This document shows, in pieces, positions 6,001-18,000 of a stretch of DNA of 35,076 bases. How positions within the stretch are numbered: position 1 is the first letter of the stretch; each line of letters starts with the position of its first letter. The position numbers were made by a program. The DNA comes from a bacterium (GTDB taxonomy: Bacteria > Sysuimicrobiota > Sysuimicrobiia > Sysuimicrobiales > Humicultoraceae), in assembly GCA_041497675.1 (NCBI GenBank), contig JBGQGY010000026.1:1-35076 (forward strand), read 5' to 3'.

Positions 6001-9000
6001 AGGGCCTGCACCAGCGCGCTCAACGTCCGCTCCTGGCGCACCCGCACCGTGAGAAGCGCCACGAACATGACCAGGAAAGCCACGATGTTGACCACCAGGG
6101 GGGCGAGCATGCTGGCGGGCAGTGCGGGACCCTCGGGCCGGAAGACCGTCGGCTGCGGGTGCAGCGTCCGCAGCAGAATTGCCGACCAGTGAATGAGCGG
6201 GATGTCCAGCACGCCGACGATGCCGATGACCGCTGCGGCCCGGGCCCCCCGCGAGCCCGGCGCCCATGCACGCACGATCAGATAGCCGACGTAGATGAAC
6301 CAGAGGATGAGCGTCGTCGTCAAGCGCGCGTCCCATGTCCACCAGGTTCCCCACACCGGTTTGCCCCAGATGGCGCCGGAGAGGAGCGTCATCGTGATGA
6401 ACAGGACCGCCAGTTCCGCCGCGGAGTGGGCCAGGCGGTCCATGCGGGCGTCGCGCCGCCAGAGGAAGAGCACGCTCCCGACAAAGACGACGGCCAGGGC
6501 GGCATACGCCGTCATCACGCTCGGCACGTGCACATACATGATGCGCTGCGGGAACCCTTGGAACACTTCGTCGGGCGCCGCCAGCAGCGCCCAAGCGGCA
6601 CCCACGAGTATGAGCAGGGTCGCAGTGATCAACAGGAGACGCGATCCGGCGGACAGAGTATCACTCCTCGAGTACGAAGTCGAAGAGCACAATGCTTGCG
6701 GCAACGAAAAGTATATCAAAGGCCCCCAGGAGCTGCAATTGCGCCCCGATCGCAGGCAACGACTGCCCGTCGAGGATGGCAGTGGTGGCACTGACGGCGG
6801 CGATCAGCAGCGGCAGCGTCACCGGCAACATCAGGATCGGCAACAGCGCCTCGCGCAGGCGGACCTGCGTGATGAGTCCTCCGAACAACGTGCCGACCGC
6901 CGCCAGCCCCGCGCTTCCCAGGATCATGGGCAACGCCAGCGCGCCCAGCCGCGTCCAGATCTTTTCGGTAAAGAGCGCACCGAAGATCGGGAGCGAGATC
7001 ACCTGCACCACGATAAGCATGAACCAGTTGACCAGCGCCTTCGCCGCGAAGATGGCGCCCCGATCGATCGGGGCCAGCCGCAACGCAGTCATGTGGTCAC
7101 GCTCCAGGGAGAAGGTTCTGGTGAATCCCAAGGTTGCGGCAAACGCATAGGTGACCCACATGGCCGCAGGCACGCTCTCCGGGTCGGACCTTGCCGCTCC
7201 GAGCACAATGACCAGCAGCAGCGCCAGCAGGCCCATCGTCGTGATAATCTCCCGCGTCCGCCACTCCAGCCGCAGGTCCTTGCCGACCATCAGCCACACG
7301 ATCCTCACGCGTGCCCCTCGCGGAACCAGGTGGCTAGGCGTCTCTCGTCGAGCCGGTCCGCCGGCACCACCTCGGTGAGCCGGCCATCCAGCAGCACGGT
7401 GATGCCGGCTGCCAGCGCGCGGGCTTCCGACAGGTCGTGGGTGGTGAACAGCACGGCCCGGCCTGCTGAGGCCGCCTCCTGCAACATCGCGGTGAGACGT
7501 TCCCTCGCGCCGAGGTCCAGACCGGTGTACGGCTCGTCCAGGCATAACAGGTCCGGGTTGTGGAGCAGTGCGCGGGCGAGGTTGACCTGCTGCCGCTGGC
7601 CCCGGGACAAGACGTGGGCCCGGCGGCCGGCCAGTGGCCGGAGCGACGCGCGGTCGAGGGTGTGCGTGACCCGCTCCTGCGGCAGGCCGTACAGGCCCGC
7701 AAAGAAGCGCAGGTTCTCTTCGACGGTCAGGCTGTCGTAGAGCAATGACTCGTGGGGCACCAGTCCTATCCGGCGCCGCAGGTCCGGCAGCGGCCCGGCC
7801 GTCGCGCCGAACAGGGAGACAGTCCCGCGAGTCGGCGGTGACAACGTGGCGACGATCCGCAGCAAGGTCGTTTTCCCCGAGCCGTTCGGCCCCAGCACCG
7901 CGACGGTCTGGCCCGCCTCCATGCGGAGCGTCGCGCCCCGTAAGATGGGTCGGTGATCATACGACTTGACGACCTCGCGCACTTCGACGGCACAGGGCGC
8001 CGTTGTCACGGCCACCAGTTCACCTCGGGCGAGCACGTTGGACGACAATGCCTTCGGCATTTCCCGCGTCAACGCCTACCCGCTGGGCGCTAAGGCCGGC
8101 CTCGGACCAGCATCACGCCCAGCGCCGCCGCGATGAGCGACAGCAACAGGTTGATCCGCCCGATCCACGACGCCTGGCGCCGCAGGCGCCGAGTCTCCTC
8201 TGAGGCGGGATTCGCCAGCCAGGCCGCGGTGGCGCGCCGCCCGACCCACAGGTCATGCGCCAGGCTCAAGACCATGATCGTCGCGACGACCAGCAGTTTT
8301 GCAGCCAGCGTCTGACCGAAGCGGCTGTTCCAGCCCTGGGGGGTGGCGACGTCCGTCCACGCGAATCGCCGGAACGCCAAGTTGGTCACACCCGTCGCCA
8401 TGAGGACGAGCAAGCTTGCCCAGCCGATCTTGCGAAACCGCTCCCCAGCGGACCGCAGCATGGCGGGCGCGAAGGCGCGATATTCAGGCCGCCGGATCAT
8501 CGGCACCAACACGGCGGCCAGGAAGATCGTCCCGCCGATCCAGATCGACGCGGCGATAACATGCAGCCAGATGGACAGCAGGTAGAGGGCCCTCACGGGT
8601 TACCAGCCGGGGATCAGCGTAGTGGATCCAGCACGACCAGGTAGCCGATCATCGTTTCGTGGTCTGGCGAACAGGCTCCCGTCGTCGGGTCGTGAGGGAT
8701 GTAGCAGCGATACGGAAACATGCCGCCCCTTGCAGCGACGAAGCTGATGGTCTCCTGTTCCCCACCAAAGAGAATTTTGGTTCGTGCGTCATATCCGTCG
8801 ACTTGAATCGCGTGGCTGGCGAACGCTAGATTCATGACCCGTAGCCGGACCGTGTCACCCTTTCGGGCGACCACCATCTGCGGATTGTAGAAGTGATGCT
8901 CCGCCGGCGCACCGACCGCGCCAAGACCGGTGATGATGAGGGAAAGGTCTACGGTGGCTGGTGCGACCGGCTGGGGAACGGACAGTGCGTTGAAGATCAG

Positions 9001-15000: not shown

Positions 15001-18000
15001 GGCGACAGCAAAGATCCCAATCTGTCTTTGCATCCTGCTCACCTCCACGACGTGTGGTATTCATACATTGCACTTTGACCCTAGACCCCGGAGGCGTTCA
15101 GCGACAACATACCCGTGAGTAGTTCTCGGAGGAATAGACCTACCCATTTGGGTAGGTCAGCGCATGATATTCCAGGAGAAGAATTGATGGCACGCTTACG
15201 GTTGCGGGAGCCATCCTTTGCGCGCCGCGTACGCAACGACTTCGGCGCGGTTACGGAGGTGAAGTTTCTCCAGGATGTTCTTCATATGGAACTTCACGGT
15301 GTTTTCGGAGATGTGCAGCATGGCCGAGACCTCGCGGTTGGAGGCGCCGCTGCTCACGGACCGCAGCACCTCCCGCTCGCGGTCCGTCAAGTCGTCCTCC
15401 ACCGCACGCTCGGTGCGCTCCGACTGATGCCGCGCGAACTCTTCCAGGATCCGGCCGGCCAGCCGTCGCGAGATCGGCGGTTCGCCTCGTTCAATCCCAC
15501 TGAGGAGATTGAAAAACTCATCTGCCTGTAGGTCCTTGAGGAGATAGCCCTGGGCGCCGCTCTTGATCGCGTCGAACAGCAAGCGGTCTTCATCGGAAAC
15601 GGTAAGGATCACGATCTTTACGTCCGGCAGCCCAACCTTGATCAGGCGGGTCGCTTCCAGCCCATCCATCCCGGGCATGGTGATATCCATCAGGATGACA
15701 TCGGGCTTCAGGCGCAGCGCCGTCTCCAGGGCTTCCCGGCCGTCGCCGGCTTCCCCGACAACCTCTACTCCCCGTGCCTCCAGCAGGCTGCGCACTCCGT
15801 CGCGGAAGAGCGGGTGGTCATCCACCAGCAGGACGCGCATTGACGATGCTCCTCTGTTGCAGAGGCAGCTGCACCACGACCTCGGTGCCCGGCCCGTCTC
15901 GAGTCCGAATCGAGAATGTGCCGCCGATGGCTTCGGCGCGCTCCCGCATGGTCTGTAACCCGAACCGCGGTAACGTTCCTCCTCGGGACTGCACCGGGTC
16001 GAACCCCTGGCCGTCATCGGTGACCGAGACGGTCAAGATCCCGTTTCGCTCCAAGAACTGCACCGCCGCCCGCCGGGCCATGGCGTGCTTGCGCACGTTG
16101 GTCAGGGCTTCCTGGATAATGCGGATCAGGTGGAGTTCGGTGGTGGGGAGGATCTCGTACCGTGCCGGGTCCCCCTCTACGATCAGCTCGGTGACGATCC
16201 CGCTGGCCTCGCCAAACCGGCGCACATACTCCTGGAGCGCGGGCATCAGCTGCCGTTCGGGCGATATCTCGGTCCGCAATCCCAGGATGGCTTCGCGCAG
16301 GTCGGCGTAGACCTCCCGCGCCGCCTCTTCCAGTTGAGCCAGTTGCGCCTGCGCCTCGGTGGTCTTGCCGGCGTCGAGCAACACCTTGACCGCCTGCGCC
16401 TTGGTGTTGACGTAGCCCAACACCTGCCCGACGCCGTCGTGCATCTCGCGGGCGATCCGTTCTCTTTCCTCCAACACCGCCACGGACTGCACGCGCTCCT
16501 GGAGGCGGGCGTTCTCTACGGCGATCGCTGCCAGATTGGCGAGTCCGCCCAGCACCTGGCGATCTTCCTGCGTAAACATCCGCTGCCGGGATGCGCTAAT
16601 GCATAACGCGCCCACATTCCGGCCGCCGATCATGAGCGGGGCAGCCATGTGCGATGCGAACGCCGTAGTGTCGATGTGTGCGCAGTACGGGCAGTCGAGC
16701 CCGGCGTCGTCGACAGGAGTCGAGATCACGCGTGAGGCGTTAAGCAGGTGCTGCCCCGTACCGGCCGCTGCCCGCACGCTCGCCGTCGTTCTCGCCTCAT
16801 CGACCAGGCACACTAAAGCCGCATCGCCCTGGAGAAGCGAGACAGCCCGAGCGGCCACCGACTGGAGGACGGCGTCGCGATCCTGCAGGCTGAGGACCTC
16901 CGTACCGACCTCGTAAAGCGACTGGGAGGCACGTGCCCGGCGCCGGATTTCCTCAAGGGAGTTGAGAAGTTGAACGCGCATCATCTCGAAGCTCCGGGCC
17001 AGCGCCCCGAGCTCGTCGGCGCGCCGGACTTCGATTTCTCGCCCCAGATCGCCGCCCGCAATCCGCTCCGCTCCTTCTTTTAACAAACGCAGGGGTGCGG
17101 CGACCGCACCCGTATCCAGCCAGGCGACGAGTAGCGCCGCAACCAGCACGCCCACCCCGAAGAGAATGATGCGGTCGCGCAACCGGCGGACGGGACCGAA
17201 GGTTTCCTCTTCGTTCTGGCCGACGCCCAGACCCCACGGCGCCCCGGTGAGAGGAGCAAAGGTCATGATGTGCATCTCTTCGCGGCCGCCGGAATCGCCA
17301 TGGGTTTCCGCAGCCGGTCCGACAAACGCGCGGCCTCCGGCGATGCCGCGGGCGAAGAACGCGGGATGCTCGCCACGGGTGAACTGCTCCGTGGGATCGG
17401 TGCTGGCCAGAACGGTGCCGGTCTCGTTGACGATGGCGGCATGTCCGCTGTTCCCCACCGCCAGACCTTTGATTGCGCTCCGGAGTATCGAATCATCCAG
17501 ATTGACTATCCCGCCCACCACGCCTATGGGCATGCCTGAGGCTCGTCGGACGGGCACCGTGAACACCATCACGGAAACCCCGGACGGGGTTCGGATCGGC
17601 TCGCTGATGCCGGAGCGACCTTCGGCCAGCGTCTTCTCAACCGAGGAGAGACTGCCGACGAGCGACAGGCGCAGCAGGGATTGGGCAGGCGCGTAGACGA
17701 TCACGGCTCCGGTGGAGTCCGTCAGGAAAATTCCGCCGGAAAACAGCTCCATCTGCGGGGCGACATCATCATAGGCCACACGGACGGCATCGACCTTGCC
17801 GGTCCTCCAGAGGAGGGCGACCCGATTGCTGAGGCGGTCAAGCTGTTCCCAGCCTTCGGACAACTCTTCGCTGATATGCTCCGCGGCGATTCGCCCCAGC
17901 GCCAGCCGCTCCGCCAGGATGCGGTCTGTGGCGGTCCGGAGCATGACGACGCTGATGACCCCCATCGGGGCGGTCGCGACAATCATGCCGATCGCCGCCA

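Follow-up and report, generated by a model that had tools for sequence, protein, structure and literature searches.

The question raised by this locus is from which donor, and to which acceptor, an operon of copper, iron-sulfur and membrane proteins carries electrons. The locus belongs to a Sysuimicrobiota (CSP1-3) genome (GCA_041497675.1, contig JBGQGY010000026.1), and the window, the whole stretch that was analysed, covers positions 1-35,076 (35,076 nucleotides). Gene calls and domain searches of the window located the five-gene cassette and extra cupredoxins of a preliminary description where it had put them. All five operon genes lay on the minus strand in the order type-1 cupredoxin, CuA-like cupredoxin, FeS subunit, NrfD subunit and Ig/TM subunit, with a two-component pair and a palindrome on the 5' side:

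15818..18028, minus strand: sensor histidine kinase, dCache-HAMP-GAF-HisKA_3; best matches NarX/NarQ-like, below cut-off
15196..15840, minus strand: NarL-type response regulator, probable regulator of the cassette
15140..15155, no strand: palindrome CTACCC-n4-GGGTAG, some 110 bp ahead of the first cupredoxin; probable operator
14545..15033, minus strand: g01293, exported type-1 cupredoxin with predicted His, Cys, His and Met ligands
14077..14523, minus strand: g01292, membrane-anchored CuA-like cupredoxin with N-terminal helix; H90, C126, C131, H135, Q138
13128..14075, minus strand: FeS subunit with twin-arginine signal; 16 invariant Cys forming four 4Fe-4S motifs
11560..13131, minus strand: NrfD-family membrane subunit, 523 aa, ActC fold by sequence and fold match
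10983..11588, minus strand: g01289, Ig/TM third subunit with signal peptide, Ig-like domain and C-terminal membrane helix; start uncertain
9609..10578, minus strand: two accessory genes, for a Met/Gly-rich exported protein and a SHOCT protein (gene calls, neighbourhood comparison)
9068..9526 and 8614..9054, minus strand: pair of membrane-anchored cupredoxins with the motif C-x10-C-x3-H-x2-M
3459..8596, minus strand: CopD-like gene, then ccmA, B, C, E, F for cytochrome c maturation (context)
1416..2276, plus strand: membrane-anchored cytochrome c with 10 CxxCH motifs (context)

Inspection of the operon genes revealed neither a molybdoenzyme nor a CxxCH protein. The earlier claim that both are lacking therefore holds within the operon; ccmABCEF begins 0.5 kb past the last cupredoxin, and the decahaem cytochrome also lies just downstream. 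The term "cytochrome-free" likewise suits the operon but neither the locus nor the family, which includes haem c fusions, and the genome has two Rieske/cytochrome b clusters. The accessory genes were outside the gene order conserved in the relatives' loci compared, and the Met/Gly-rich protein had no Pfam match. Copper genes were abundant in the window (CopA-type ATPase, CopD-like, second CopI-like protein).

The distribution of the cassette was studied. Among 60 relatives, 11, belonging to four families, had full-length matches to the NrfD subunit at 73-81% identity, slightly extending the earlier range of 73-80%; 14 of the 60 had matches of at least 60%, partial ones included. The order cupredoxin-cupredoxin-FeS-NrfD-Ig, previously noted as conserved together with the two-component pair, was kept in 10 of the 14 relatives with the membrane subunit; one of the others was split over two contigs, two were rearranged and one was a 3' fragment. 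A ZIP transporter or ccm genes were frequent neighbours. The core of FeS, NrfD and Ig/TM subunits was also found in Chloroflexota, Actinomycetota, Verrucomicrobiota and archaea, and outside the lineage the Ig/TM subunit was fused to a haem c, cupredoxin or DOMON domain, or to NrfD. Of 78 loci, 66 contained Ig-bearing modules, 69 in total; an automatic rule classed their carriers as copper only (23), haem c only (20), both (6) or neither (20). Fusion proteins comprised cupredoxin-Ig-TM (n=12), haem c-Ig-TM (n=10) and NrfD-Ig (n=9), and one locus (P0092) encoded an NrfD-haem c-Ig fusion. Judged from these sequences, the cassette would be the copper version of a widespread complex, other versions of which use haem. 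In some relatives the third subunit bears a fused cupredoxin in the place taken by haem c in others; this favours an electron route to copper proteins, and the swap is stronger evidence for the cupredoxin link than was available before.

The swap also bears on the suggestion that the module provides reducing power to handle copper, or to mature and activate copper enzymes, rather than for bulk respiration. The copper genes of the window, the weak resemblance of g01293 to CopI (score far below cut-off) and the adjoining ZIP or ccm genes agree with such a role, but it fails to explain why 26 of 69 modules have haem c carriers, which counts against it, as does the conservation of channel residues described below. 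This role is considered quite improbable.

Of 8000 matches scored in a database search, 6753 had an E value of 1e-100 or lower; thousands of database proteins, many labelled as molybdoenzyme anchors, may belong to the module family, whose members were partly checked. Plasmids yielded only partial matches (35-39%). A literature search for the cassette or complex found no description. Two papers considered as precedents were rejected because they concern different NrfD clusters, with formate dehydrogenase (PMC13332983) or of ACIII type (PMC10732223).

The best NCBIfam models were DsrO for the FeS subunit (184.8 bits, cut-off 200) and DsrP for the NrfD subunit (95.6 bits, cut-off 350), both below cut-off. 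A twin-arginine signal was recognised by pattern in 39 of 49 FeS subunits. The NrfD subunit, which probably has 12 membrane helices and is one of only three NrfD-family gene products of this genome, is of the cofactor-less type and is paired with a four-cluster FeS protein, as in the NrfD/PsrC dimeric redox module. The sequences support a putatively quinone-reactive NrfD/FeS module without a molybdoenzyme of its own and tied to cupredoxins. Of the copper-based quinol oxidoreductase proposed earlier, the tie to cupredoxins thus stands, with the fusion swap behind it; the acceptor and the direction of flow we infer.

Could the module instead serve as membrane partner to a molybdoenzyme whose gene lies elsewhere? 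Contig C90, which overlaps the left end of the window by 141 bp, carries TtrB- and TtrA-like genes (below cut-off) with neither an NrfD gene nor a TtrC gene, and the relative G004 has a similar pair immediately downstream of its cassette. Mo-linked NrfDs also grouped near the family in a FastTree phylogeny, but its backbone was poorly supported, with long-branch joins, and therefore no order of events is claimed. Against this arrangement, a Mo subunit gene stood beside the FeS gene in 0 of 69 modules, nearby Mo enzymes in relatives' loci mostly have their own FeS and NrfD genes, and after the C90 pair come Rieske, cytochrome b and multihaem genes of its own. It is given only a slight chance.

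ActC was the closest solved relative of the NrfD subunit (E 1e-61 to 2e-56), and the folds matched with a TM score of 0.82-0.86 on target. The equivalents of ActC Ser164 and Asp169 were kept, Glu394 was replaced by Lys, and the proposed channel residues were mostly kept, those on the cytoplasmic side being intact. The position of His139 was Asp in 81 of 82 rows and that of Asp253 was Ile in 79 of 82; the proximal cluster of the FeS subunit had, by sequence, four Cys in 49 of 49, versus Thr in ActB. These differences contradict the former description of an alternative complex III core. A related proposal is an aerobic substitute for complex III, in which cupredoxins would carry electrons to the aa3 oxidase, since ACIII reduces haem c or auracyanin. 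The ActC match and channel residues agree with it, as do an oxidase subunit II without fused haem c, the few monohaem cytochromes of the genome and a cox operon directly upstream of the cassette, now seen in two genomes of one genus instead of one region. However, ActA, B1, E and F and a [3Fe-4S] motif are missing, Rieske/cytochrome b clusters are present, the palindrome lies between the cox operon and the cassette in both cox-flanked genomes, and cytochrome c oxidase is reported in >90% of the phylum versus the cassette in 15 of 61 genomes. The proposal therefore seems rather unlikely.

The same residues allow a Qrc-like reverse direction, in which periplasmic carriers would reduce quinone, possibly uphill via the proton gradient. 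The Asp at the His139 position probably corresponds to QrcD Asp120 (listed in Table 2 of PMC8076601), the cytoplasm-side channel residues are intact, and type II DMSO-reductase-family genes (Nar/Nxr-like) adjoin the C-x10-C pair or the cassette in some loci. Yet copper carriers are usually near +200 to +250 mV versus -70 mV for menaquinone, and at the presumed position of the FeS Tyr that Qrc requires for quinone reduction, this cassette has Phe, and only 14 of 49 sequences have Tyr. Reverse flow is considered quite unlikely.

Regarding the cupredoxins, the best PDB sequence matches of g01292 were CuA domains, with two His and two Cys aligned, and NosZ C-terminal domains matched it at about 33-44% identity, in agreement with the earlier report. 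Its Cys/His motif is present but is not canonical CuA: C-x4-C-x3-H-x2-Q, invariant in 17 of 17 sequences, replaces the loop His ... C-x3-C-x3-H-x2-M seen in NosZ and the oxidase of the same genome. Thus, the Cys spacing is one longer and Gln replaces the axial Met, and g01292 is stand-alone and membrane-anchored, unlike the CuA domains of NosZ and oxidase subunit II. It may be regarded as a CuA-like protein with a non-canonical site presumed to hold copper; because of this motif, the two Cys might form a disulfide. Sixteen of 61 genomes encode the C-x10-C pair family, at 17 places in all; 8 of these are in the cassette or next to it, 7 lie no more than 8 kb from nosZ and 2 are on short contigs. 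An Atlas search returned generic cupredoxin clusters only.

Histidine kinase orthologues (57-69% identity) adjoin the cassette in relatives, and from its position the NarL-type regulator probably controls the cassette. The palindrome was at the same position, with 0-1 mismatch, in 11 of 13 carrier genomes with the upstream region covered. The exact palindrome was not enriched genome-wide (16 sites versus 46 for the reversed control); therefore, only its position counts. Scans for sigma-70 promoters and terminators did no better than chance. An operator shared with nos genes was not found; in the nos loci scanned, no palindrome preceded nosZ.

Genes, gene order, motifs, fold, fusions and co-occurrence were observed directly. 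On balance, it appears somewhat probable that the module oxidises menaquinol and, via cupredoxins, feeds terminal reductases in the periplasm, chiefly the copper enzymes for N2O and nitrite. The twin-arginine FeS protein, the ActC-like NrfD and the Ig/TM protein would form a three-subunit membrane complex, possibly translocating protons, with menaquinol oxidised near the outer face of the membrane. The four 4Fe-4S clusters would pass electrons to a membrane-tethered carrier, presumably g01292 in this lineage, with the C-x10-C pair and the soluble type-1 cupredoxin as relays, and haem c or a DOMON domain on the Ig/TM subunit in others. The end users would be high-potential periplasmic reductases lacking a quinol dehydrogenase of their own, with copper N2O or nitrite reductase as the likeliest. 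Such FeS/NrfD modules can act alone towards periplasmic carriers (PMC6303296).

The menaquinol to N2O reductase reading is supported by menB with an adjacent UbiA-family gene (MqnC was not found in the genome), by a clade II nosZ cluster in which no NosGH or cytochrome gene was seen, and by C-x10-C pair paralogues 4.6 kb upstream of that cluster. Either nosZ or nirK was present in 12 of 15 carriers versus 17 of 46 other genomes; the signal came from nirK (7 of 15 versus 4 of 46, kin not being independent), and two nirK matches contain stops. Several results count against feeding of these reductases: nosZ alone was not enriched (7 of 15 versus 15 of 46, p 0.36), 15 genomes have nosZ without the cassette, three carriers (72-94% complete) have neither enzyme, nosZ is not preceded by the palindrome in the nos loci scanned, nirK is absent from this genome, and the two Rieske/cytochrome b clusters are present. 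In addition, wires made up of 4Fe-4S clusters alone usually have low potentials, and menaquinol does not reduce them in ACIII (PMC10873879). In 4 rows, closely related NrfD proteins that share the quinone-site residues work with molybdoenzymes or a Dsr-type cluster. More tentatively, the modules could be a new family of minimal respiratory complexes into which different carriers can be plugged, found in many bacterial and archaeal phyla; the copper version might be a haem-free, possibly proton-translocating menaquinol:cupredoxin oxidoreductase with a Gln-axial CuA-type site, supplying clade II N2O reductase and NirK.

Deep soil and hot springs commonly harbour clade II N2O reducers that lack NosR and NosGH, and the module is a candidate electron route to their enzyme. 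Being the most compact natural framework of the ActC fold, it could show whether this fold moves protons without the haem wire of ACIII. Haem, copper and DOMON swaps on one scaffold illustrate evolutionary exchange of carrier metals.

Finally, the cassette was compared with known systems. Alternative complex III has the ActC-type membrane subunit in common with it, but the multihaem ActA, the Mo-like domain of ActB1, ActD, the monohaem ActE and ActF are missing here, the cassette has a four-Cys proximal cluster instead of [3Fe-4S] by the quinol site, Asp and Ile replace quinol-site His139 and Asp253, the NrfD subunit has two extra helices in this lineage, and the third subunit is Ig/TM. Because ActA, B1, E and F and the [3Fe-4S] motif are lacking and the quinol site is altered, the module is not alternative complex III. 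Complex iron-sulfur molybdoenzymes (Psr/Ttr/Dms) have a Mo catalytic subunit beside FeS and anchor subunits, unlike any of the 69 modules. QrcABCD resembles the cassette in the Asp at the quinone site and the ten-helix family branch, whereas QrcA, QrcB and the [3Fe-4S] motif are missing and the FeS Tyr is not conserved. NosGH/NapGH, for which a role from menaquinol to N2O reductase was proposed (PMC13685413), share this proposed role; their membrane subunit is unrelated, and they belong to nos clusters, whereas the cassette lies outside the nos operon. In genome G039, nosZ follows a gene for a Fer4_5 membrane polyferredoxin, which has CuA cupredoxins on either side. DsrMKJOP differs in dsrM, dsrK and dsrJ, which the cassette does not contain, and the DsrO and DsrP scores were below cut-off. 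NrfCD, DsrOP and MccCD, like the cassette, combine an FeS protein that has its own export signal with an NrfD-type subunit and no Mo enzyme; the partners of NrfCD and DsrOP are the multihaems NrfB or DsrJ, whereas here they are cupredoxins, monohaem or DOMON domains on the Ig/TM subunit. By this analogy, the module would work more like a stand-alone NrfCD/DsrOP module.

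The five genes of the cassette and two extra cupredoxin genes were found at the positions assigned to them in the preliminary description:

14545-15033, minus strand: g01293, first cupredoxin
14077-14523, minus strand: g01292, second cupredoxin
13128-14075, minus strand: FeS protein
11560-13131, minus strand: NrfD subunit
10983-11588, minus strand: g01289, Ig/TM protein
9068-9526 and 8614-9054: extra cupredoxins (C-x10-C pair)

The cassette is real and conserved. Its NrfD subunit was found at at least 60% identity in 14 of 60 relatives (full length, 73-81%, in 11 of these), and the gene order, described earlier as conserved, is kept in 10 of the 14; of the others, one cassette is split across two contigs, two are rearranged and one is a fragment. 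Among the 13 carrier genomes with upstream sequence, 11 have the palindrome CTACCC-n4-GGGTAG 92-185 bp upstream of the first cupredoxin gene; in the other two (G039 and G060) it was not found upstream of the cassette. This position indicates that the cassette is its own transcription unit, and the adjacent NarL-type regulator probably controls it. The same palindrome occurs twice in a Chloroflexota locus (L093:13753 and 13809), ahead of a type II DMSO-reductase-family gene immediately downstream of a copper-type module. A cassette copy in G023 (L147:7125-10460) is in decay: the kinase, regulator and first cupredoxin are fragmented, the g01292 orthologue is intact, and FeS and NrfD genes were not found there.

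A genome scan confirmed 190 relatives, and 78 loci were retained, spanning Chloroflexota, Actinomycetota, Verrucomicrobiota, Planctomycetota, Gemmatimonadota, Acidobacteriota and several archaeal phyla. The Ig/TM gene was the constant third component (69 modules at 66 of the 78 loci). By an automatic rule with known miscalls (a tandem module credited with its neighbour's cupredoxin, one mis-started Ig gene, several loci truncated at contig edges), the carrier was copper only in 23 modules, haem c only in 20, both in 6 and neither in 20. The carrier was frequently fused onto the Ig/TM subunit, as cupredoxin (12 proteins; profile matches E 3e-8 to 4e-3, Pfam match in 8), haem c (10 proteins) or DOMON (2 above the cut-off); NrfD-Ig/TM fusions occurred at 9 loci, and P0092 combines NrfD, haem c and Ig, although fusions seen singly might reflect lost stop codons. 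The chief reason to regard the cupredoxins as the module's electron carriers is this exchange of carriers on a common scaffold; a role of the module in copper handling or maturation appears improbable. A Mo gene adjoined the FeS gene in none of the 69 Ig-bearing modules and in 4 of 15 NrfD rows that lack an Ig gene, and service to a Mo enzyme in trans is regarded as unlikely.

At 17 loci, including L084:2180-4146, the Ig/TM gene is followed by two exported genes without Pfam match, one of ~180-290 aa and one of ~470 aa; the longer of them has TIG-like Atlas neighbours. Both are absent from the window. At L034 and L041, the first module is followed immediately, in tandem, by a more distant FeS-NrfD(-Ig) module.

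The FeS protein bears a twin-arginine signal, and all 49 aligned homologues share its 16 Cys, one of which is Thr in ActB of alternative complex III (ACIII). According to PMC10873879, ACIII conducts electrons through its [3Fe-4S] cluster and haems, not its 4Fe-4S clusters. The predicted structure of the NrfD subunit (pLDDT 86.7) matched ActC best, with 12 long helices counted on the model versus 10 in ActC. Its channel and quinol residues were compared with the R. marinus residues of Table 2 in PMC8076601, using 82 rows after 9 more had been put aside as outgroup. Most ActC channel residues were kept, but 81 of 82 rows have Asp for His139 and 79 have Ile for Asp253.

A single N-terminal helix and a cupredoxin fold make up g01292, and its best sequence matches were CuA domains. 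H90, C126, C131, H135 and Q138 were kept in 17 of 17 sequences; the canonical CuA motif for comparison was that of the NosZ and oxidase of the same genome. Gln as an axial ligand lowers the copper potential. By sequence, g01293 has type-1 copper ligands.

The label 'cytochrome-free' failed for the organism. Downstream of the cassette, ccmABCEF lies on the same strand, with a decahaem cytochrome in facing orientation. The first 141 bp of the window overlap the end of another contig, C90, which completes the sensor kinase begun in the window. C90 also encodes a heptahaem cytochrome and a TtrBA-like pair lacking a TtrC anchor, followed by Rieske, cytochrome b and multihaem genes. The rest of the genome has a further Rieske/cytochrome b cluster, a single haem-copper oxidase, menB and clade II nosZ. 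Given ccm, the multihaem cytochromes and two Rieske/cytochrome b clusters, the organism does not need the module as complex III; that the module feeds the aa3 oxidase is rather doubtful. The kinase (window 2-1309) has one CxxCH motif in its N-terminal membrane domain, and haem-motif kinases also occur upstream of Anaerolineae modules. Window 21957-35076 is a copper/metal island (CopA-type ATPase, a second CopI-like cupredoxin at 28068-28604, two YHS-like proteins, a YVTN beta-propeller, His-rich small proteins, DoxX-like gene).

Regarding the acceptor, the C-x10-C cupredoxin family was found in 16 of 61 genomes, at 17 places altogether. Of these, 8 lie inside or next to the cassette, 7 no more than 8 kb from nosZ and 2 on short contigs. 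nosZ or nirK was present in 12 of 15 carriers versus 17 of 46 non-carriers (Fisher p 0.006, an overstatement since related genomes are not independent; the 46 include one unpublished genome, G019, which supports no claim). nosZ alone was not enriched in the 15 carriers relative to the 46 others, and nirK was not found in the genome studied. A menaquinol dehydrogenase, for instance NosGH, is considered necessary for clade II nos clusters (PMC13685413), and none of NosGH type was seen in this genome's nos cluster. Against nosZ as acceptor, 15 genomes had nosZ without the cassette, and the putative operator was not found upstream of nosZ at the nos loci examined. At L146:8983-11193 and L057:2264-4617, a Fer4_5 membrane polyferredoxin lies between two CuA-motif cupredoxins, upstream of nosZ in one and of the cassette in the other; this set is possibly a second copper-linked quinol dehydrogenase.

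The somewhat favoured reading is that the module would oxidise menaquinol, passing electrons into the four-cluster FeS wire and thence, through a membrane-tethered copper carrier, to periplasmic copper reductases. Electron flow in the opposite direction is given little weight.

The cassette is apparently undescribed so far: no description was found in the literature searched, although supplements and subscription reviews on ACIII/NrfD clusters, outside that search, could mention one, and no paper was found on NrfD, cupredoxin and 4Fe-4S together. The word 'copper' is absent from the NrfD family survey (PMC8076601), and complex III is not mentioned in the main text of two phylum papers (PMC11604079 and PMC11962464). 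A dimeric NrfD/FeS module able to work alone towards soluble periplasmic proteins is an already known type, according to PMC6303296. The resemblance to an ACIII core, as initially proposed, was not upheld; the cassette instead represents an apparently new form of the NrfD/FeS redox module, its function being deduced from genomes only.
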